Assembly: GCA_964016885.1 (NCBI GenBank)
Contig: OZ024750.1
Coordinates: 36,704,001-36,768,000, forward strand
Reading direction: 5' to 3'
From: Eledone cirrhosa
Lineage: Eukaryota
Length of the DNA stretch: 64,000 bases
Position 1 is the stretch's first letter. Every line of letters starts with the position of its first letter. Shown here one piece after another: positions 3,574-59,975 of the stretch. A program made the position numbers and the translations under genes. The notes beneath the pieces were generated by a model. That model worked only from the letters and a program-made list of their open reading frames with translations. It did not search any database and was not told the DNA's origin.

Positions 3574-3768
3574 CACCTCCACGACCACTTTGCAGTGGAA
3601 TGATAGGGACCCCAGTCCCGATCATCTCATTTCTACAGCTGAGAAAACTGGAGCAATGTGAAATAAAGTGTCTTGCTCAAGGAAACAACACATCACCCGG
3701 TCTGAGAATTGAACTCACAACCTTTCGATTGCAAGCCCAATGCTCTAACCATTAAGCCATGCGCCTCC
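3574..3768 (-). mobile_element. tRNA-derived SINE family A, 5' part
   Basis: Reverse complement of the ggaggcgcatggctta.tggttagagc...gagttcaattctc...ccttgagcaagacacttt head. Confidence 0.85.
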
Positions 3769-9922: not shown

Positions 9923-10245
9923 TGTGGCTTAGTGGTTAGAGCATTGGCCTTGCAATCGAAAGATTGTGAGTTCAATTCTCAGACCGGGTGATGTGTTGTT
10001 TCCTTGAGCAAGACACTTTATTTCACATTGCTCCAGTTTACTCAGCTGTAGAAATGAGATGATAGGGACTGGGGTCCATATCATTCCACTGCAAAGTGGT
10101 CGTGTAAGCGCCATGGCAAAAAAGCACCCAGCACTCACTGTAAATGAGGTTGGTGTTAGGAAGGGCATCCTGCTGTAGAAATCAAGCTAAAATCAGTTGC
10201 CGTCCCACCCTTGCAAGCAGGGATAAGCAGACGTAAAATGATGAG
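9923..10245 (+). mobile_element. SINE family A, near full length
   Basis: A-box tggcttagtgg, B-box gagttcaattc, ccttgagcaagacacttt core, RTE-type tail ending cgtaaaatgatga. Confidence 0.9.
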
Positions 10246-14159: not shown

Positions 14160-14498
14160 CATCATCATCATCATTTTACGTCCGCTCTTCCCTGCTTGCA
14201 AGGGTGGGACGGGAACTGACTCTGGCTTGATTTCTACAGCTGGATGCCCTTCCTAACACCAACTTCATTTACAGTGAGTGCTGGGTACTTTTTTTGCCGT
14301 GGCGCCTACACGTCCACTTTACAGTGGAATGATAGGGACCCCAGTCCTTATCATCTCATTTCTACAGCTGAGTAAACTGGAGCAATGTGAAATAAAGTGT
14401 CTTGCTCAAGGAAACAACACATCACCCGGTCTGAGAATTGAACTCACAACCTTTTGATTGCAAGGCCAATGCTCTAACCACTAAGCCATGTGCCTTCA
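14160..14498 (-). mobile_element. SINE family A, full length
   Basis: Reverse complement of family A including the (GAT)n tail. Confidence 0.9.
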
Positions 14499-19035: not shown

Positions 19036-19329
19036 GCAAAAGTTCTATTTAAAACTGATATATATTGTATTTTGTCTGATGAAAGCATACCATAATTTAA
19101 CATGGTATCCTTGAAATATGTATAATAAAATAGATATGGTTTTATAAATATAGTTTCCATTTTTTAATATCGTATATATATATATATATAATTATATATT
19201 TGTGTACAGATATTTTTGTATACACAATAACAAAATATAAACAAACATATTTATTTTACAAGGCGCGATAAGGATAAATATATAAGAACCCTAGAGCAAA
19301 TCCCAAGCAACGCCGGGCCATTCTGCTAG
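18601..19329 (+). mobile_element. Non-autonomous Helitron-like element containing an HHR element insertion
   Basis: A|TC 5' end (tctaaaacagagaatgtctgtc), subterminal ccc..gcaacgccggg hairpin, CTAG|T 3' end, no TSD. Confidence 0.7.
19068..19132 (+). ncRNA. Minimal type I hammerhead ribozyme motif (family H1)
   Basis: tattttgt CTGATGA aagcataccat-loop-atggtatcctt GAA ATATGTAT A ataaaata: 8-bp stem I, near-palindromic stem III, AUA triplet. Confidence 0.65.
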
Positions 19330-21500: not shown

Positions 21501-21831
21501 ACATACACCTTTGATGAGTTGTAGTACACCTGAGCACTGTACACAATAATTTTCATTATTATCTTTTTCTTTTTATTATTATCATTGTCATTTTCATCCT
21601 GACTGCCGTTGACACTACTGCTGTCACTTGCATCACCACTACCACCAACAAGGACATCACCACCAATGACATCATCAGCACCACAATGATCACCACCACA
21701 ATCACCACCGCCAACACCACCACCACTTATGAAACTGAAAATACTGGTTTCTGAATTTCAGCAGGTCATCCAAATGTGTGTGTATGTGTGCTTATATACA
21801 TGTATGTATGTGTATATATATATATATATAT

Positions 21832-22434
21832 CACTGATGAGGGACTCATTTTATAACATGTAATCCATGTGCAACCATGCAGTATTCTTCTCCCCATATT
21901 TTTCACATATATTTACCTAAACTGCAATTCTGTGTTTCTCTCTTTCTCTCTTACTGCTCCCTCGTTCTCTCTGTTTCTCTTACTTTCTTTCGTCCCCTCT
22001 GTCATGTCAGTTAACACTTTCTCTCTACTGACCTCTTCCTCGCACTTCCACTCACTCACTCTCTGTTTCTCCCCTTCTTACCTCCTCCCGTTCGCTACGA
22101 AAACGATTTTCCTTCTTTCTTACATCGGATTCACTAGCGGAAGGTCTGTTTCTTACTCGAACATGTATTCAAACAGCTTATACTGACAGAATAACCATGT
22201 TGCTTGTGTTTCTTTCTATCTTTGGTTAGCTTTCCCCTGTGTTGTTTACTTGTCTCACTCGCTTTACGCGTTTCAATTGTCCTAATAACTTATTTTAGTT
22301 ATTATCGCACCAACGTGAGGTATATGATTTTTAATGCGATGAAATACCAATGATCGTTGGCAAATCACTGATGAGGGACTCATTTTATAACATGTAATCC
22401 ATGTGCAACCATGCAGTATTCTTCTCCCCATATT

Positions 22435-22442
<8 letters not shown>
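21832..22442 (+). mobile_element. Non-coding Penelope/retrozyme-like element with terminal direct repeats (21832-21910 and 22365-22442), flanked by (TA)n
   Basis: ~78-bp direct repeat starting tcactgatgagggactc; pyrimidine-rich body; related minus-strand copy at ~41495-41765. Confidence 0.65.
22310..22377 (+). ncRNA. Candidate permuted (pseudoknotted) hammerhead ribozyme
   Basis: ccaacg-tga-GGTAT-A-TGATTTt-taatgcgat-GAA-ATACC-aatgat-cgttgg-cAAATCA-CTGATGA: stems III and I plus a clamp helix all pair. Confidence 0.6.
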
Positions 22443-22495
<53 letters not shown>

Positions 22496-22801
22496 TATAC
22501 ATATATATGTGTGTGTGTGTGTGTATGTGTTATATACTTGTATGTGGAAGAACGGACGTAAAACGGTGATGATGATGATGATGATGATGATATATATATA
22601 TTATGGAATACTGTTGGCTTCTTGCTACAATAATTTAATATTCTTTTCATTTATATATATATATATCTATATGTGTGTGTGTCTGTATGTTTATATACAT
22701 GTACATATGTGTATGTGTCTGTGTACATGTACATATATATGAGCCTGTGTGTATATTTATATACATGTATATGTATATATGACTATGTGTGTATACATCT
22801 T

Positions 22802-23857: not shown

Positions 23858-25352
23858 TTCTTTGAGTCTCAGTCATTGATGTTATTTAAATGGAAAGTTT
23901 GTTGAAATGAATATCAAGCCGCTACCTGCAGCCTCAGATATTCAGGACGTATTGGAGGGTTCTTGCTGTTCCCAGCAAGCATGCCTTTTGAAGTGTTCCA
24001 AAAAACGGGGCGGGACCAATTTTCTTTAACCATCCTTGGAAACTCTTTGAGATAGTACCTAGTGCGCCTATGACAATCGGGACCACTTTGACTTCATGGC
24101 AGTTCCAAATCCTTTTTACCTCCCACTTTAAGTCCTGGTATCGGTTAATTTTCTCCCTCTCCTTCTCTTGCACTCTTGTATTGAATGGGCAGGCTAAAAC
24201 CACAATCAGACACAATCTTTTTTCCTTGTCCAAAACCACCAGATCAGGTCTGTTATGTTCCAGTTTCTTGTCCGTCTGTATCCTAAAATCCCACAGCACC
24301 TTCACCTGATCGTTTTCTATTACCGACTCTGGCTTATGCTCATACCACTTCTCAGAATGTGGTAAATTGTTTACTTTGCATAGGTGCCAGTGGATCACCC
24401 TGCCCATCACATCATGTCTCCAGCCTTTATAGTGAGTCTGGGCTAGGTGTTTACACTTGGATACAATGTGAGCCACAGTCTCCTCTCTCTCTCTCCACAG
24501 ATCCTACACAGTGGGCTAGCCTCCTCCTTGTAAATATGGTGTTTCAGCCACTTCGTTTTGAGGGCCTGCTCTTGCGCAGACATTAGCATTCCTTCTGTAG
24601 CCTTTTTAAGGTCTCCTCTTTTCAACCAGTTCCATGTCTGTGGATCTCTGAATTCAGTTTTCTCAAAGAAGGTACTATGAAGGGATTTTTCATGAAGGTT
24701 GCTCTTTCTCCTTGATGTTATTTCCTCCTTGGACATCCCCTGGTCTACTGTCCTCTCCTTCAGTACAATTCTGAGCATAGGCTCCCTACTATCAGTCACG
24801 TATTTGTGTAGGTTGTTTTTCTCCATCTGAACACAGTCCTCTATGCTGATAAGACCTCTTCCACCTTCAGATCTCCTTAAGTAGAGTCTATCAACATCAC
24901 TCCTCTTGTGGAAATGTTGTAGATAGTCAATAGCTTCCTAGTCTTCCTATCCATTTCTTTTTGTTCAGCAACATTCCATCTCAGAATTCCCGCACTGTAC
25001 CTAATAATAGACACAGCTCGGGAATTTACTGCACTTATAGCATTCCAACTGTTCAGATGGGATCTTAATACGCTCCTTACTCTCTGAATGTATTCAGATC
25101 TTATCAATTCCTTTATTTTTTGTTCTTGATATCACAGCCTCCAGAACACCTAAATATTTGTATCCTTCTTCAGTGTCAATTTCCTTTATCCTCTCACCTG
25201 TTGGTACCTGGATTCCGTTGCTTCTGCTCAATTTACCCCTCTTCATCACAAGGACTCCACACTTACTAATACCAAATTGCATACATATATCATTGCTGAA
25301 AATACGGACAGTGTCAACAAGTACATCCAACTCCTTCTCACTCTCACTCTTC
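23858..25352 (-). mobile_element. 5'-truncated R4/Dong-clade RLE LINE (end of RT, CCHC finger, restriction-like endonuclease), frameshifted
   Basis: FGISKC, YKYLG, CRICG...HIVSKC, RHD, WDFRIQTD...NRPDLVV...KINRY, PIVIGALG, QKACLLGT across ORFs 25094, 24877, 24443 and 23934; both ends lie in (TAA)n. Confidence 0.9.
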
Positions 25353-27177
25353 TTCTTATTATTATTATTATAATTATTATTATTATTGTTATTATTATAT
25401 ACATACAGAGACAAATATAAATACATATATATATATACATGCATATAAATATACACACACAGGCTCATATATATGTACACGTATATGAACACACACAGAC
25501 ACATATTCTTTGTAGAGTTGGAGAAAGGAGTGTTTAACTATAAAACTACCCCCCTACCAACCATCCATACACCTAAAAAAAGATACAAAGTATGAGTATG
25601 ATATTCAAAAGTTTATATGTGTATAACATGTTTCCAGTATGAGAAACCTTAACAAAGAGACTTATGTAACAAATATCTGTCATGGTGTAATATTTTCTCC
25701 TAAATGTTCAGAAGTAGACCTAGCTAGAAACTGAAAATAAAATAATATATTACTGAGTAAACCAATTTATTGAGGATTACTACAAGAATGTTTTATTAGA
25801 GTGAAGCAAGAATTTGGTGTTGTACTAGTCCTGACAATAAAAATAATTTATTATCTTGGATTCACCAAGTACAAAAGTAGAAAGAGCAATAAAATTATAT
25901 TTATTGAGTTCAGAAAAATAACATGAAACGACCTCCTAAAATTATTTGATCTTAATTTGATCATTACTGTTATGACCTTAACCAAGATCAAGGCAGTGAA
26001 ACGAAGTCATATTCTATAATATGAAGAATAAATCTTTATGATTAAAGTAGATATATAATATGAATGTCAACTTGTAATATTTTTATAGATCTAATTTTGC
26101 ACTTGTATTAGTACACAGACTATTGGAAAATGAATGTAATATTTGTAAATGCAACAGATCATTAATTATTTAACATCAAGCCAGAAAATGTTTCTAATTA
26201 GATTTTATGGTAATTCTTTTCACATCTGTAGCTGTTGAACTGGATATTTCCATAAAAATAAACTAACATTCTAATAGAAGGAAATAATGAAGTATGAAAT
26301 TAAAATGAAAATATTATAGCTGACGCATAAAGAAAAATATTTTGGAGGAAATCAATTTGAATAATTTATTGATAGATATCAACAATCAATTTTAATTGAA
26401 ATGGCAGTTTTATTTTCAGAATTATTCATTTTCCATTTTTCTTTAATTTTTGTAATGTTTATGCGTTACAGTGTTACAATTGAAAAATATTTCTTAATTA
26501 AAAAGTCATACAGTTGTGTATATATTAGAAATACAGGATATATTACACTTTCTCAGTTGATTAATATTATAATTTCCATAGAAGTAAAAGAGTAATGATG
26601 CTAATGACTAGTTTCATTGGCTGACTGCAACAATCCAGTCATTTGCTCAATAAATTGCCCACACAATGTAGCTAGAAGAGAAATCTGTAATGAACCAATT
26701 GAGAATTTTTATCATGTCTGCTTTCATTCTTTAATGTAATAGAGAGATAAAACCTGTCTAGTTAGTCGTTCTACTAGCTTTATACAGTTATTCACATAAA
26801 TCTATAAATCGGAACAAAACCTTTATAGTACAGTATTATTCTAGCTTCTATTTCACTCCATATATTATCTTACAAATACAAAATTAGTTAACTTAAGTAG
26901 AAATCTACCTTAAAATGAATTATGCAATGTGAGCAGAAATATAAAACTAAAGGTCAACAGTACAAATAGTTTAGCTTTTAACATCCTGAAATGATTTAGC
27001 AGTAAAATATCTAAAAAAATGTTTTCCTAATTGAAACGGTTCATATTTTTATTGGTGGATAGATTGTTGGGGAAATTTGTAGTATTAATGAAAACGCTTT
27101 AATATTTAATGGGATATATTTGACCTGAGCCCATCCACTGCCCAGTCATGTAAAGGTTTAAAGGACTCTTTAGTTGT

Positions 27178-27528
27178 ATCATCATCATAATTTTACATCC
27201 GCTTTTCCCTGCTTGCAAGGGTGGGATGGGAACTGATTCTGGCTTGGTTACAGTGAGTGCTGGGTGCTTTTTTTTCCATGGTGCCCACATGTCCACTTTA
27301 CAGTGTGGGCTGGGTGCTTTTGTTTTGCCGTGGCACCTCCACGACCACTTCGCAGTGGAATGATATGGACCCCAGTCCCTATCATCTCATTTCTACAGCT
27401 GAGTAAACTGGAGCAATGTGAAATAAAGTGTCTTGCTCAAAGAAACAACACATCACCCGGCTTGAGAATTGAACTCACAACCTTTCGATTTTAAGGCCAA
27501 TGCTCTAACCACTAAGCCATGTGCCTCC
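27178..27528 (-). mobile_element. SINE family A
   Basis: Consensus match with a small internal duplication and deletion. Confidence 0.85.
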
Positions 27529-41007: not shown

Positions 41008-41353
41008 GGAGGTACATGGCTTAGTGGTTAGAGCATTGGCCTTGCAATCGAAAGGTTGTGAGTTCAATTCTCAGACCGGGTGATGTGTTGTTTCCTTGAG
41101 CAAGACACTTTATTTCACATTGCTCCAGTTGACTCAGCTGTAGAAATGAGATGATAGGGACCGGGGTCCATATCATTTCACTGCAAAGTGGTCGTGGAGG
41201 TGCCACGGCAAAAAGCACCCAGCACTCACTGTAAACGAGGTTGGTGTTAGGAAGGGCATCCAGCTGTAGAAATCAAGCCAGAATCAGTTCCCGTCCCACC
41301 CTTGCAAGCAGGGAAAAGCGGACGTAAAATGATGATGATGATGATGATAATGA
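41008..41353 (+). mobile_element. SINE family A, full length
   Basis: Consensus match with (GAT)n tail. Confidence 0.9.
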
Positions 41354-41504
41354 TATATATATACATTTATTAAGGCTAAATAGTGAGTGTTGTTACTCTA
41401 GAGTTTCACCTTTTTATCACAAAGTCATCAGACAAGAACTAATTCTTTTCTCTCAGCCAGCAACCCCATATGGATATATATACATACATATGAATAAAAT
41501 GAGT

Positions 41505-41572
41505 CCTTCATCAGTGATCTTCCAACCTTCATTGGTATTTCATCGCTTTAAAGATCATATACCTCTGGTTGG
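41505..41572 (-). ncRNA. Candidate permuted (pseudoknotted) hammerhead ribozyme
   Basis: Minus strand: ccaacc-aga-GGTAT-A-TGATCTT-taaagcgat-GAA-ATACC-aatgaa-ggttgg-AAGATCA-CTGATGA-agg. Confidence 0.65.
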
Positions 41573-41992
41573 TGCAAGCAACAGCTAAAGAAAGTCATTG
41601 GGACACGTAAATAGGGGGAACGAGCGAGACAGTAAACACACAAACAAATATGGTAATGCAACGAAAAGTGAGGAAGAAGGAGTCAAGTCCCTGAAATCGA
41701 TGAACATAAGTTCTGTGAAATCGTAGACGAGAGAAAAAAAGACCATCCAACCTGGTTACATACATGTATATATTATATATATATATATATCCTTTTTTCC
41801 CTTTTCTCTTTCTTTTTTTTCCCTCTTCCAACGACTTAATTTAAATATACTGTTATTTAAACCTTTCCAACACTAATTTGCATAATAAACCAACAATAAA
41901 TCTAATTGCTCCACTATCCAGGAGACTCTAACCCTGAAGGTTGCATTTTTTCAGGGTATGTCAATATTTATTTATAAAACTAATCTATATTA

Positions 41993-49843: not shown

Positions 49844-50739
49844 CGAGGTGTGTCAAAAAAGTTCCGGGACTGATATCACAAAAGATTTATTTCAAACCTA
49901 AACTTCACACTAAGAGTTTTCTCCTTCAAAGTAATCCCCCTGGAGTCTAATGCACTTTTCCATCCTTTTCTGCCATGCTTGCATGCACTCCTGGAAGGAT
50001 TCTTCCGGGATCCTCCGCAGTTCTGTCGTCACGGCCTTTTTGATGTCGTCCACGTCTTCAAAACGAGTCCCCTCTGGGTCATACTCGAAGATCCATGACT
50101 CATCACCGCTGATGACTGTCCCTAGCAAGTCTGGTTTGGTTTCAAGACGCTCGAAGATGTCCTGGCACACTTGCATGCGTCGACCCTTCTGGTCATCGTT
50201 CAGCAGTTTTGGCACCATCTTCGCGCACACTTGCCGCATGTCCAAATCTTCAGTGAGAATCTTCCAGACGCTGTCCCGATTCATGCCCAGTTCATTTGCC
50301 ATCAGACGAACAGTCAGCCGACGATCCCTACGCACCTTCTGCCTGACGGGCCCAACGTTGACCTCAGTCCTGGTTGTTGTGGGCCTTCCGCTCCTGGGGT
50401 CATCTTCCACATCCTCGCGTCCTTCTTTAAACCTCTTGCACCACTCAAAAACACGTGAGCGTGACATCGTCTCATCTCCATACACTTGCTGCAGCAATCC
50501 CAGTGCTTCTGACGGAGTTTGCAAGTTTGTTCGTTGCTCTGTGCTCATTCCTTGACGATCTGAAACAGAGGACATGTATACAAAATTATGAAGAAAAAAG
50601 TTTGATCGCTGCAGGGAGCTAAGATTACAGTTACATACTCCAGGGGGATTACTTTGAAGGAGAAAACTCTTAGTGTGAAGTTTGGGTTTGAAATAAATCT
50701 TTTGTGACATCAGTCCTGGAACTTTTCTGACCCACCTCG
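49844..50739 (-). mobile_element. Internally deleted mariner element with 103-bp TIRs and TA duplication
   Basis: 49844-49946 is the inverse of 50637-50739; TA on both sides. Confidence 0.9.
49910..50548 (-). CDS. Truncated mariner transposase (HTH domains kept, most of the DD34D core deleted in frame), 212 aa from MSTEQR
   Basis: SRSRVFEWCKRFKEGREDVEDDPRSGRP, CAKMVPKLL, then GDESWIFEYDPE joined directly to GTRFED, ending GDYFEG; HDNA and YSPDLAP motifs absent. Expression unknown. Confidence 0.7.
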   Translation of the reverse strand: MSTEQRTNLQTPSEALGLLQQVYGDETMSRSRVFEWCKRFKEGREDVEDDPRSGRPTTTRTEVNVGPVRQKVRRDRRLTVRLMANELGMNRDSVWKILTEDLDMRQVCAKMVPKLLNDDQKGRRMQVCQDIFERLETKPDLLGTVISGDESWIFEYDPEGTRFEDVDDIKKAVTTELRRIPEESFQECMQAWQKRMEKCIRLQGDYFEGENS

Positions 50740-53519
50740 TATATTATACTTTAGATAAAGATGAGATGATACTTGTGAAAGATAAACAGAGGATAAAGAT
50801 TAAGTGGCAGTACAAACTCAGCATTACTACTCCAGTGATACAGGCCTGAGCAGAGTGTGTGTGGGGGGGGGGGGGGCATTCACTCTTGTGTATATGAACC
50901 CAGCCCGGTCTCAGTAAACAGCAGAATAGAGAAGACATTACCCTGGAGGATGGTGAGAGAGACATGTTGGAATAGTCATTCCAACTCACAGGGCTTGCTT
51001 CAGCATATAGCAAACTCCATTCTGATAGTTGTGAGTAGAGATGTGGCTATAATATGTGCAAAGTGCCAGAAGTCTCCACTGCTACAGGTTATACCCCAAA
51101 CTTATTGGAGAGTAACCAATATTTGGGAATGTGATGATCATACTTTGAACACTATTGATTATCAATCTGCTCCATTGATATGACTTGCTGCTAAATCGCC
51201 TCTTCCTCTTTCTTCTTCTCCCCCTCCTCTTCCTACTTCCATATGAATTAGTCTCAGGCAGCCTGTTGTTGTTCTTCTGACTGAGATCAAAGATCTGCGA
51301 TCAGTTTCAAGGAACCACTGAGAGGAGGACAACAAGCTTGTGGAGCCCTGCTGCTAAATAACAACCAGTTATCTATGATGAATACAGAAATAGGAAAATA
51401 TTTTAATATTTTTATAAATTTGAAATTTTTACTTGACATCAAACATTCAAATTATTCTTCATTTTCTCCGATATCTATTCATTGAAATCTGCCTCTCACA
51501 TCAATATCAAGTACGGTAGTTAATTTAAATGATAATAATCTCACACAAATTTTAAGCTATCATGAAAGCAAAGTAGAAAATTAACTCAAGTTTTTGAAAA
51601 GTCATATTTCCTCATGCTTAAATAAGTAACAAGGTTTTGCTAATCAAATTGTAATGAATGAATAACAAATATCATGCTTAAATATGATACTGAAATAGCA
51701 TGTCTGTATTGTTCAATTTATGAAAGGGTAACCAATGTGTGATTTGATAAATAAAATGATAGAATGCATAATTCACACATTAAACAAAACCAAAATTCAA
51801 TATATATGAGCTTTTATTGAGTTAAAGCTACATTACAAACATTTGTCATGAAATTATTTATATATATATATATATGTGTGTGTGTATACATATCATATAT
51901 ATATATATATATGTGTGTGTAGCAAAGAATCAGGGTGCAACAGCTGAGCTCTTGCAGTTTCAACAGACAATTCCAGTAGATACTAGATAAAATACAGGTA
52001 TCCGCTTTTTGTAGGCAACCTTACTCTTTTGTATTGTAAGGTGGATGGATGCATTTAAATATATGTGTATACACACACACATACACACACATATATATGT
52101 GTGTGTGTGTGTAAAATGACAAAAACTTATTACAATCCAGTAGTTTTCTTTTCTTATTTATAGAAACCTTTTATTCATTATACCTTCTTAACATGGCATG
52201 ATTAAAATGAAATGAGAAGATCATTTCTAAATTATTATCATATTAAAGTTCTGAGCTTCTAATGTTACAGTGTGATTCTGAAAGGATAAAATTCAACTAT
52301 TTAATTTTGTATGAGCAATCACTGAATGATAATGAGCTTTCAAATAGACATTAAGCTATTCACTAATAACTGCATTCACCTGAGACTGGAATTCATGTGA
52401 CTATCTTGTTAATTTAATGGTTTTCAAACAAAAATATAATTTAAAGTTATCTTGTACAAATGGCTGGTTGTAATTATAAAAAACAAACACACATACTTAT
52501 GTATATGTGTATTTATTAAATGCAAATAATAAAAATGAAATATTTGTTTAAATTATCTTTAGAGACTCATTACAATACATTTGTATAATAATATTTTCTC
52601 TAAAATTGGTTTGAATCACAATTTCTCTTCTATAGCTCCATATTGTATTCATTTTAAAATTAAATTTCATGCTTTGTCTCCCAAATGAATATATGAGGTT
52701 CAAATTTAAAATATTGTCAAAAACTTATCCTTTTATAGAAGAATATTCACGTAGCCTTTTATAGAAGAATATTCACAATATTTAATCCTATCATCAGCCA
52801 ATCAGAACTTACAAACATGAACACTAATGTAGAGATACCCACTGAATACATAACCAAATTAGTGTCATTGCTTTCAGAAAACTTTGAATCTAAAAAATGT
52901 ATGAAACAGGTAAAAAAATGCAAAAAAAAATTAGATATGAAATTCATTAAATTTAGCAACCTGAGACAGTAGAATATCTTCAGAGTTGACACATCATCTA
53001 ACCCTGTTAGTAAACTCTGTGACTATAATAATGGCTTATACATATCTCCAATACAGTCTACCTAGCTTATAAAAGAGTCTCTTTATCGTCAGTTACACTA
53101 CGTGTAAGGATAAAGGATAAAGATCCCGTAACTCCTTGTGGAGTTGTAGAGCCACCGTCAAATGACGTGTCTAGGGCACTATTTAAGCTGGCGGAGCCCT
53201 ACCCTCTCTAGGTCTGAACACAGTCGATTTGTTTCTATATAGGAAGAATTGACCCCAGTACTGGACTGGTACTTTTTATATTGACCTCAAAAGGATGAAA
53301 GACAAAGTTGACCCCAACGGGATTTGAACTCAGAGATTGCAATGAGGTAGGATGAATACCATAAAGCATTCTATCTGATGTCTTAATGGCTCTGCCAATT
53401 TGCTGCTAACAGACAAATCTCCCTAAAATTAGCCCTGTTCTTTGCTGTCGTAAAACAAAAATGAGATGCCATGGACAATATAATCTTAGATATATGGAAT
53501 GACAGAACAGTCACAAAGA

Positions 53520-54904: not shown

Positions 54905-56020
54905 GTAGTAGACAACTGACGAAGGGGAACTGACCATCTCTTGTTTGTGTTGCCTTACTTTCTAACACTCGTTATCAGTAACCACACAGCCTCATCTCCC
55001 TCAATCCATATTTTTGTGTGTATATATATATATATATATCATACATGCACACAGCCAGACACACAAGGCGGTGGATTGGCAGTATCGGTAGAGGGTCAGA
55101 CACCATGCTTTGGTGCATAGAGTTATGGCACTTGCCATTCTGAGTTCAAATCCCGTCGAGGTTAACTTTGCCTTTCATCCTTACGGGGTCGATAAAATAA
55201 AGTACCAGTAATACACTGGGTAATTGCTGGCCTTGTGCCATAAGTAGAAACAGTAACCACACAGCCTCATCTCCCTCAATCCATATTTTTGTATTTACTA
55301 CTGTGACCTTCGCTACATCCGCTCTACCTATCTCGCTTGATTTGTTTTTCCTGGTCCGACTTATATCTTGCCACTCTTTTGGATCAATTCCTTCCCTTTC
55401 TCTCATCTCCATTTCTCTCTATCGATCTCCGCTCATTTGTTGATCTTGGTTGCACCTGCGTCGTGCCACCCTTTTGGATTAACTCCCTTTCCCTCCTCCT
55501 CCCTCCCTCTCTCTATCCCGCTTACTCACCTCCTCTGCCTTCTACCCTCCTCTCGCATCCTGTTCCTCCGTCTTTCTCTCTGCGCTCACTTTCACTGAGA
55601 ATAGACGTGTTTACTTAGCTCTGCTGTTATTATGGCCCCTGGGCTTAAACCCAATGGCTTTTTTTAACTTGGTCTTATTTCTTCTCATTTGCTTACTTAC
55701 ATGTGCCATTGTCCTGTATTACCCCCTTCTATCGGTATGCTTTCTTCTTTTTTTTTTCACTTTTTTTCTTCCTTTTTTCCATCTCTCTTTTTTTCTTTCT
55801 TTCTCTCTCTTCGTTATCGCTTCTTTCCCTCATAGCTTTTTGATAGATAAAAGGCTAAGGGAGCACTACGGATTGATGTATTGTCTATAATGCGCTGAAA
55901 CATCTGTGACCCGTAGTAGACAACTGACGAAGGGGAACTGACCATCTCTTGTTGTGTCGCCTTACTTTCTAACACTCGTTATCAGTAACCACACAGCCTC
56001 GTCTCCCTCAATCCATATTT
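54905..56020 (+). mobile_element. Non-coding Penelope/retrozyme-like element with ~108-bp terminal direct repeats; SINE B inserted at 55067-55252
   Basis: gtagtagacaactgacgaagggg...caatccatattt at 54905 and 55913; pyrimidine-rich body; TG/TA microsatellite flanks. Confidence 0.65.
55866..55933 (+). ncRNA. Candidate permuted (pseudoknotted) hammerhead ribozyme, GUA triplet
   Basis: ctacgg-att-GATGT-A-TTGTCTA-taatgcgct-GAA-ACATC-tgtgac-ccgtag-TAGACAA-CTGACGA-agg. Confidence 0.7.
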
Positions 56021-56042: not shown

Positions 56043-56374
56043 GGAGGCACATGGCTTAGTGGTTAGAGCATTGGCCTTGCAATCGAAAGGTTGTGAGTTC
56101 AATTCTCAGACCGGGTGATGTGTTGTTTCCTTGAGCAAGACACTTTATTTCACATTGCTCCAGTTTACTCAGCTGTAGAAATGAGATGATAGGGACTGGG
56201 GTCCATATCATTCCACTGCAAAGTGGTCGTAGAGGTGCCACGGAAAAAAAGCACCCAGCACTCACTGTAAATGAGGTTGGTGTTAGGAAGGGCATCCAGC
56301 TGTAGAAATCAAGCCAGAATCAGTTCCCGTCCCACCCTTGCAAGCAGGGAAAAAGCAGACGTAAAATGAAATGA

Positions 56375-57430: not shown

Positions 57431-57475
57431 GAGAGTAAAACAAAGAATCCTTTAATACATCAAAAGTTTTTATTA

Positions 57476-57513
57476 GCCGACAATGTTTCGTCCTATTAAG
57501 GACTCATCAGGGC
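57476..57513 (-). ncRNA. Canonical minimal type I hammerhead ribozyme with GUC triplet
   Basis: gcc CTGATGA gtcct-taat-aggac GAAAC att GTC ggc, then t-AATAAA; at the 3' end of an AT-rich segment (~57430-59065) bounded by TA tracts. Confidence 0.85.
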
Positions 57514-57842
57514 AATCAAAACAACAAGAGGTAATTTCGGCAGATACAAGCCAGAAACTCTGAAGAATATGGAGTTTACATACACTAATGTCTTACAAGG
57601 ATATACGATAATAAAAATGAAGATAAAACTAATAAAATTATAATAACTAAGGATGTAGATAACATTAAGAACCATATTACAAATATGGTCCAAAGTCACC
57701 AACTTAAATCTAAACAAATTTGGTTATATAGAACAGGAATTATATATAACACAGTATAATACATTATAATAATAATATATCTATACCAACACTGAAATTC
57801 CAAATCAAAAATCAAAAGGTACAATATATACATGTATATATG

Positions 57843-59234: not shown

Positions 59235-59630
59235 TACAATATTAAATAAATGGAAAACTATATTTATAAAACCATATTTATTTCATTATATATATTTCGG
59301 GGATATCATATTAACAATATGCTATGCCTTCATCAGACAAAATACAATATAAACAGTTTTATAGATAAATATATTCGACATACCGTAATAAACATCAACT
59401 TCATTTGAAGAGGTTTACTCTAGCAGTAAAGAGGTTTACTGCTAGAGTAAACCTCTTCAAATGAAGTTGATGTTTATTACGGTATGTCGAATATATTTAT
59501 CTATAAAACTGTTTATATTGTATTTTGTCTGATGAAGGCATAGCATATTGTTAATATGATATCCCCGAAATATATATAATGAAATAAATATGGTTTTATA
59601 AATATAGTTTTCCATTTATTTAATATTGTA
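59235..59630. repeat. Fold-back with 196-bp arms and 4-nt loop; each arm carries an H1 hammerhead (59279-59344 minus, 59521-59586 plus)
   Basis: 59235-59430 is the reverse complement of 59435-59630; tattttgt CTGATGA...GAA ATATATAT A atgaaata. Confidence 0.9.
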
Positions 59631-59648
59631 TATATATAATATATATAT

Positions 59649-59975
59649 TGGCTTAGTCGTTAGAGCATTGGCCTTGCAATCGAAAGGTTGTGAGTTCAAT
59701 TCTCACACCAGGTGATGTGTTGTTTCCTTGAGCAAAACACTTTATTTTACATTGCTCCAGTTTACTCAGCTGTAGAAATGAGATGATAGGGACCCCCGTC
59801 CCTATCATTCCACTGCAAAGTGGTCGTGGGGGTGCCACGGAAAAAAAGCACCCAGCACTCACTGTAAATGAGGTTGGTGTTAGGAAGGGCAGCCAGCTGT
59901 AGAAATCAAGCCAGAATCAGTTCCCGTCCCACCCTTGCAAGCAGGGAAAAGTGGACGTAAAATGAAATAATGATA
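59649..59975 (+). mobile_element. SINE family A
   Basis: Consensus match. Confidence 0.9.

Follow-up and report, generated by a model that had tools for sequence, protein, structure and literature searches.

A conserved hammerhead-core fold of S-G-C block order, probably self-cutting, at the tail of a non-coding retroelement in Eledone cirrhosa

The window analysed here is a stretch of 64,000 nucleotides of the Eledone cirrhosa genome (assembly GCA_964016885.1, contig OZ024750.1, forward-strand positions 36,704,001 to 36,768,000), and all positions below are counted from its first letter. At 21830–22439 (+) it holds a non-coding repeat, family A, in which one 534-bp unit follows a partial copy of its own tail (21830–21915 (+)) in a pseudo-LTR-like arrangement between (TA)n tracts. 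The partial copy begins inside the predicted ribozyme, just before CUGAUGA, and the 3' end of the element has entered a (TA)n target that can be read in the sequence at 22440–22508 (+). ORF and motif scans found no open reading frame in the 534-bp unit. A family B copy lies at 41494–41642 (-) and is 80% identical to family A over 152 nt (core 41578–41501, H17 at 41558), and a family C element is represented by a ribozyme copy at 55822–55939 (+) (core 55860–55937, H17 at 55880, k-turn position 1n altered) and, by sequence comparison, an upstream partial tail copy at 54905–55003 (+). A first look across the 3.0-Gb host genome gave 1826 matches for family A, 1768 for B, 645 for C and 1413 for a further family, F; these are counts of candidates and not copy numbers, and the A and B sets may overlap. 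Elsewhere in the window, a frame at 49913–50743 (-) has motifs that we take to be those of a mariner-like transposase, and weak tRNA matches occur at 3702–3759, 9923–9986, 14431–14488, 27458–27525, 41011–41078, 56052–56109 and 59648–59707, at least those at 41011 and 56052 being head copies of one SINE-like repeat.

Family A is young, with 9 of the 40 top genome matches 100% identical and 31 of the 40 at 99% identity, and it has a fixed 3' end, variable 5' ends and no fixed start. Among 30 copies picked by their 3' part, the ends of 26 lie in a microsatellite, no more than 2 nt from a single site, and four continue into the next unit; all of 20 copies picked by the 5' part of the unit run on into a previous tail (for three of them the walk ended early and the flanks were used). 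The marks of a non-autonomous Penelope-like element, namely partial tandem (pseudo-LTR) copies, 5' truncation and microsatellite targets, are all present in family A. The 5' ends of 13 of the 30 copies fall inside 31 nt, from -48 to -18, with the predicted cut at -44/-43, versus one of the remaining 17 in the 71 nt upstream, end positions beyond about -130 being inexact. Just two of the 13 clustered ends match the predicted cut exactly, and the claim that many copies start at the cut was reproduced only partly. Since 17 of the 30 copies span the predicted site, and all keep about 70 nt 3' of CUGAUGA, the RNA templates were intact there. The cluster at and 3' of the site does not prove cutting; polymerase stalling inside the fold predicts the same cluster.

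The motif at the tail of family A carries the blocks of a hammerhead in the order S-G-C (cleavage site, GAAA, CUGANGA), and the circular orders CGS, GSC or SCG of type I, II and III hammerheads do not describe it. In the 22310 copy (+), the alignment places its parts as follows. The 5' strand of a helix P0 (22279–22283) pairs with 22375–22379, and in alignment A1 this helix is 97.3% paired, with two-sided changes in three of four pairs. A hairpin Px of 7 bp with a 6-nt loop (22284–22303), which appears in both the minimum-free-energy and the centroid structure of this copy, separates P0 from the 5' strand of stem II (22304–22309), which lies upstream of the cleavage block; its first column pair is weak. 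The clamp 5' strand (22310–22318) is also the non-bulged strand of a predicted k-turn (3n, 2n, 1n = U, G, A). Block S (22319–22331) comprises the stem III 3' strand, H17 = A22324, 3' of which the cut is predicted, and the stem I 3' strand; it is followed by a 3-nt linker and block G (22332–22348), in which the stem II 3' strand (22335–22340) and GAA precede the stem III 5' strand (22344–22348). The k-turn bulge of 3 nt, 1b–3b (G, A, U), and the clamp 3' strand occupy 22349–22360, and the stem I 5' strand, CUGAUGA (22368–22374) and the P0 3' strand complete the motif at 22362–22379. The bases after CUGAUGA close an extra helix, P0, which together with Px would give a four-way junction inside the core. 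Px is present in families A, B and C and absent in F. The first stem II pair can be read in two ways in families A, B and F, where the base after A9 may still supply it.

Between stem III and the clamp, families A, B and F have a loop with the sequence of a k-turn, a 3-nt bulge followed by G1b.A1n and A2b.G2n, and so do two metagenomic loci discussed below, L176 and L180. The standard k-turn is defined in this way in the accessible part of PMC5061560, where 2n = U and 2n = A are given as known non-standard forms; as a match of sequence, family C has the 2n = U form, its 55866 copy being without A1n, and one reading of the RLE1 family (see below) the 2n = A form.

The sequence-only reading of this window had placed permuted-hammerhead copies at 22310 (+), 41505 (-) and 55866 (+), positions that we retain, and had built its fold from stems I and III and the clamp. 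These three helices stand; stem II, the closing helix P0, hairpin Px and the k-turn were missing from that model. It had also pointed to two compensatory changes between the first two copies, whose gap-free 78-nt cores (22304–22381 (+) and 41578–41501 (-)) differ at 11 positions. Both changes are as described, a G-C to C-G exchange in the clamp (22315/22355) and a U-A to C-G exchange in stem I (22329/22363), each Watson-Crick on both sides, with stem III and the AUA triplet, including H17, identical in the two copies. When 11 substitutions are placed randomly, at least two two-sided Watson-Crick pairs arise in 1.4% of 200,000 trials, and the two double substitutions taken alone would be modest evidence for a selected fold. 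Overlooked at that stage was a third two-sided change, U.U to A.A at k-turn positions 3n/3b. The true stem II also has three one-sided changes that had been missed, and two of them disrupt its terminal pairs in the 41505 copy; two terminal stem II pairs are broken in family B. The 41505 copy is atypical of its subfamily, as the clamp carries a mismatch in 29 of 43 B-type copies, a count in which overlapping loci are not fully de-duplicated.

The 55866 copy differs from the 22310 copy at 34 positions. The statement that all its helices differ in sequence and still pair holds for nine two-sided pairs, all paired in 55866 (eight are paired in 22310 and one is mismatched there); one stem II pair is broken. 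GAAA and CUGANGA are indeed retained, and the stretch taa(t/a)gcg(a/c)t, which had been taken for a conserved linker, is present but consists of a 3-nt linker plus the stem II 3' strand. A search against Rfam gave no hammerhead match at any of the three copies up to E = 1; a covariance model scan of the window matched only these three copies and one partial tail.

To extend the comparison beyond the window, we assembled alignment A2, 28 hand-picked copies from families A, B, C, F and G out of 103 distinct motif matches; rows were chosen by motif and by eye, on the core motifs and the UAA linker with up to one mismatch allowed, and truncated, decayed and chance matches were left out. The four helices comprise 24 pairs, of which 17 have changed on both sides, and 672 cells, of which 92.4% are paired; controls in which the partner strand was slid are 30–48% paired. 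Stem I is paired in 95.9%, stem II in 79.2% and stem III in 97.9% of cells, with two-sided changes in each. Stem II is formed here from the six bases upstream of the clamp, and its columns 2 and 3 covary between families. We rejected a canonical stem II built from the bases 3' of CUGAUGA, which is 50.6% paired, apart from its first pair, the only one that holds (24 of 28 rows). Shuffled alignments reached the covariation score of A2 in 0 of 500 cases and the count of 17 pairs in 197 of 500. Because the shuffle ignores relatedness and 197 of 500 reach that count, the weight rests on independent families, and on other animals, in which every helix is kept although the letters differ. With these further families added, the proposal of the sequence-only reading that the RNA fold is under selection during replication of the element is supported.

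C3, G5, A6, G8, A9, A13, A14 and A15.1-U16.1 are invariant in A2, G12 and U4 reach at least 90%, and N7 is free; the hammerhead core is present as CUGANGA, GAAA, A15.1-U16.1 and H17, in rows selected on these motifs. Likewise, the UAA linker between stems I and II is invariant in 28 of 28 rows that had been selected with this linker at no more than one mismatch. Besides these core letters, stems I, II and III, the clamp and P0 covary, one strand of stem II lies upstream, and the bases after CUGAUGA lie in P0. Nested minimum-free-energy folding did not recover the fold and mostly gave no unusual stability (the three copies in the window have z of -0.8 to -1.7, two further B/C copies -1.1 and -3.0, and an F copy +0.6), pseudoknots being outside such models.

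How does this wiring relate to known hammerheads? The closest likeness is to the type-SGC RNAs, HRIMA-1 and its variants, which according to the accessible text of Eckert et al. (2023, PMC10085705) have the order S-G-C and come from metatranscriptomes only, not from genomes of known organisms, and which, like the type-CSG RNAs of the same work, cleave in vitro. The window fold shares with them the S-G-C order, three mutually crossing stems, a link of about 3 nt between stems I and II and intact core letters. It differs in having an upstream 5' strand for stem II, P0 and Px placed at A9/10.1 and a k-turn sequence in stem III, and in being part of high-copy animal retroelements. Type-SGC is described as having an extra helix between the far ends of stems I and II; in the window fold the clamp provides a covalent connection between these ends but is itself a continuation of stem III. 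In that paper CUGAnGA is assumed to lead directly into the stem II strand, whereas in the window fold at most one pair could come from the base after A9. The motif would work like a type-SGC hammerhead yet lacks this defining feature, and we do not class it as one. Type-CSG, known from two metagenomic sequences in the same source, follows the same non-circular cycle, opened between G and C and with no four-way junction; in the window fold the cycle is opened inside block C.

Non-LTR retrozymes are described, in the portion of 10.64898/2026.07.22.740005 available to us, as short non-coding tandem units with one hammerhead per unit that derive from Penelope-like tails. Their hammerheads, and those of Penelope-like pLTRs of type I, are wired C-G-S and sought by type I descriptors, which would miss the window motif, and the window repeat has no type I hammerhead in its unit. 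PMC13725137, as far as its text was accessible, cites Weinberg 2015 and PMC10162972 for hammerhead variants with extra helices, and the accessible part of PMC10162972 has length variants with no extra-helix variants seen. Our literature search found no publication on this wiring; subscription papers, supplements and Weinberg 2015 may hold a precedent. Conventional hammerhead-like sequences also occur in the window: a type I match (RF00163, 31.7 bits) at 57472–57516 (-); a perfect inverted duplication, 61395–61595/61900–62100, in the inverted arrangement typical of Penelope-like pLTRs, where both arms contain a Hammerhead_HH9-like match that stays under the gathering score; and canonical-order minimal motifs of two families with a very short stem III at 19076, 30793, 32672, 42001, 44489, 45950 and 59529 (+) and at 59336 (-).

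Naiads, as reported in the accessible text of Craig et al. (2021, PMC8557442), are Penelope-like elements that insert into (TA)n, form partial tandem pseudo-LTRs and have no canonical hammerhead, with 'core' or 'half core' flags only. Family A resembles them in its (TA)n preference, its pseudo-LTR partial tandems and the fold at its 3' end, and differs in having no ORF. The clade is recognised by an ORF with N-terminal GIY-YIG, CxC and RT, or by a tail in common with an element of this kind; of these, family A shows a tail that looks like that of Naiad_Obim by eye. The available supplement was read by eye at 60 of 62 CTGATGA, 30 of 43 CTGAAGA, 15 of 23 CTGACGA and 15 of 25 CTGAGGA places, a procedure that misses matches spanning line ends. 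On this reading, at least 10 of the 54 published Naiad consensi end in P0, Px, an upstream stem II strand and the S-G-C fold. They include Amil, Aacu, Anas, Obim and Ovul, named from the adjacent headers, and five unnamed consensi in supplement parts 9, 12, 12, 19 and 25 (the one in part 25 weaker); the coral versions, in the part available, have another asymmetric loop in place of the k-turn. At least six others as read, Nbra-1, -2 and -3 and three unnamed consensi in parts 13, 15 and 16, in the nematode region, have an intact type-CSG order, and one in part 17 is of S-G-C order, interrupted by long inserts. Three octopus Naiad consensi in the accessible File S5 of PMC8557442 share, in their 5' regions, a conserved stretch that contains CTGAAGA.

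Family A is most likely derived from the tail of a Naiad-type Penelope-like element. ORF and motif scans of the loci found no autonomous partner carrying family A's tail, and two primer patterns based on Naiads gave 0 matches; a degenerate endonuclease primer search yielded one decayed Naiad-like endonuclease remnant with no fold nearby (L173:2290–2900, cut off before the reverse transcriptase). The protein of this remnant, like the repeats, resembles published octopus Naiads. A Penelope-like endonuclease at another locus, L110, was rejected as a partner of family F: it inserted separately, has a type I-like motif of its own and is divided from the F copy by (TA)n.

The fold is not confined to Penelope-like elements. 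A spacing-pattern search of metagenomes returned seven loci, six of which fold (22–23 of 24 pairs) and one of which does not. At L174 and L176–L178 the end of an ORF overlaps the fold. Relatives of this ORF have RVT_1 and zf-RVT, and homologues occur in fish, lancelet and mussel. At L176:547–624 the UGA of the k-turn is the stop codon of this RLE-type ORF, and P0, Px and the stem II 5' strand are therefore coding; at L180:897–974 the fold stands alone, with a weak P0, in the apparent 3' UTR of an unrelated ORF, possibly as an exaptation or a truncated insertion. Among the best 30 loci for the RLE-type protein in the E. cirrhosa genome, 23 belong to one family, RLE1, in which each helix and core motif is present in 20–23 of the 23 copies. 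The ten copies that fit a strict spacing have 402 of 420 pair cells paired, flush P0/Px/II junctions and helices of 12 (P0), 8 (Px), 5 (II), 5 (clamp), 6 (III) and 6 (I) bp. From their motifs, we take RLE1 and L174–L178 to be HERO-like. The RLE1 protein comprises a reverse transcriptase (Pfam RVT_1), a sub-cutoff zf-RVT and a C-terminal RLE-type region. These are features of the HERO clade in the accessible part of PMC9004415, a likeness that we draw from motifs rather than a tree, and RLE1 departs from that clade in its Penelope-like tail-to-head copies. No publication linking HERO with a hammerhead was found in our literature search.

Could such RLE retrotransposons, rather than Naiads, copy family A or have supplied its ribozyme? 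We regard this as possible, though doubtful. Family A is young, whereas cephalopod Naiads are described, in the text of PMC8557442 available to us, as long inactive, and only the decayed remnant mentioned above was found here. RLE1 has the same fold and often continues into (TA)n, and its copies are joined tail to head at L191/L216, where 3599 nt separate the ribozymes, and at L203. In RLE2, a decayed family with the fold in its majority line, the majority k-turn arm equals that of families A and B at 13 of 14 bases, and the RLE-borne L176 core has family A's exact spacing, which the search pattern imposed, with 44 of 78 positions identical. Against a role of this kind, family A shares an exact 12-nt Px stretch and a similar P0 with Naiad_Obim, and family F a k-turn arm with Naiad_Ovul, both seen by eye in the accessible supplement; blastn finds no similarity between family A and the RLE loci, the RLE1 copies examined are frameshifted, and a young RLE family with intact 1141-codon frames lacks the fold in four of four loci. 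A decayed copy of this young family, seen also at L219–L222, lies in the window at 23937–25537 (-), ends in (AAT)n and has no permuted fold.

We propose the following model for the family A motif, to which we assign a probability of about 0.7: a non-coding, tail-to-head retroelement carries at its tail a conserved fold with the hammerhead core in S-G-C order, which likely cuts the element's RNA after A22324 and likely re-joins a unit-length circle for a borrowed reverse transcriptase at (TA)n. P0/Px and stem II/core would stack as a four-way junction that replaces the A9–10.1 link, while the k-turn would bend stem III back and bring both of its strands to the far ends of stems I and II. Cuts after A22324 at successive units would free a monomer, and after cutting about 22 bp may hold its two halves together, favouring re-ligation of the monomer's own ends. 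The borrowed enzyme would then start at an internal AU-rich site on (TA)n and copy round the circle. Copying of a circle is in keeping with a 3' end that is fixed, a start that is not, and copies that read through the cut site; the last of these is explained, too, by a long linear transcript left uncut. AUA is a weaker hammerhead triplet than GUC or GUA.

The main rival to cutting is that the fold is selected but mostly does not cut in vivo, and serves as a hammerhead-shaped scaffold that lets the element's own protein recognise the tail of the RNA and begin reverse transcription, or as a protein-gated switch, the k-turn being a possible site for an L7Ae-family protein. Several observations suit this view: no insertion has lost the sequence 3' of the site, 17 of 30 run across it, family A, RLE1 and L174–L178 all carry the fold directly 5' of the 3' end, and the split at A9 may distort the core. 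The conserved letters, however, are the catalytic set, partly through row selection, and they are kept across phyla and element classes; the Naiads of the nematode region, in the supplement as accessible, moreover have intact type-CSG versions of the same cycle. We consider a scaffold unlikely.

It is less probable still that the RNA cuts as a minimal or dimeric hammerhead, whose stem II would be no more than one pair, joining 11.1 to the base that follows A9, while pairing with the upstream strand, P0 and Px would be accessory or form between copies. This pair holds in 24 of 28 rows from the animal's own genome, versus 10 of 28 for the upstream partner of 11.1; family F is without Px, and dimeric cleavage of Penelope-type hammerheads is known, to judge from a title among the references of PMC10085705. 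Yet in RLE1, L175–L178 and L180, as in the fold-bearing Naiad consensi read by eye in the available supplement, the partner of 11.1 is the upstream G and not the base that follows A9, and columns 2 and 3 of stem II covary from family to family. That neutral differences were fixed in a few master copies and the helices over-read, as the four or five independent families in the genome, the two-copy probability of 0.014 and the choice of A2 rows by motif and eye without decayed copies might suggest, is barely credible and largely refuted already, since RLE1, RLE2, L174–L180 and 10 Naiad consensi retain six helices that are spelled with different letters, and the spacing pattern gave 0 matches in viral contigs and one, non-folding, in 596 Gb of prokaryote genomes.

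Beyond the family A motif itself, we tentatively, and at somewhat less than even odds, extend the cutting model to a wider one. A hammerhead core that is interrupted at A9 and restored by a four-way junction and a k-turn may be a mobile module common to Naiads and HERO-like RLE LINEs, which are unrelated classes of retroelement, RNA circles may explain the pseudo-LTR insertions in both, and the Naiad clade may carry a non-circular cycle that is opened in various ways by phylum. If true, non-circularly permuted hammerheads would move from host-less environmental RNA into high-copy animal genomes, the stated rule that CUGAnGA leads directly into stem II would be broken, and the reported lack of hammerheads in Naiads would be explained. 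The finding gives a test of how the tandem insertions of Penelope-like elements originate, from a circular or from a linear template, and it suggests that ribozymes may have been exchanged between classes of retroelements.
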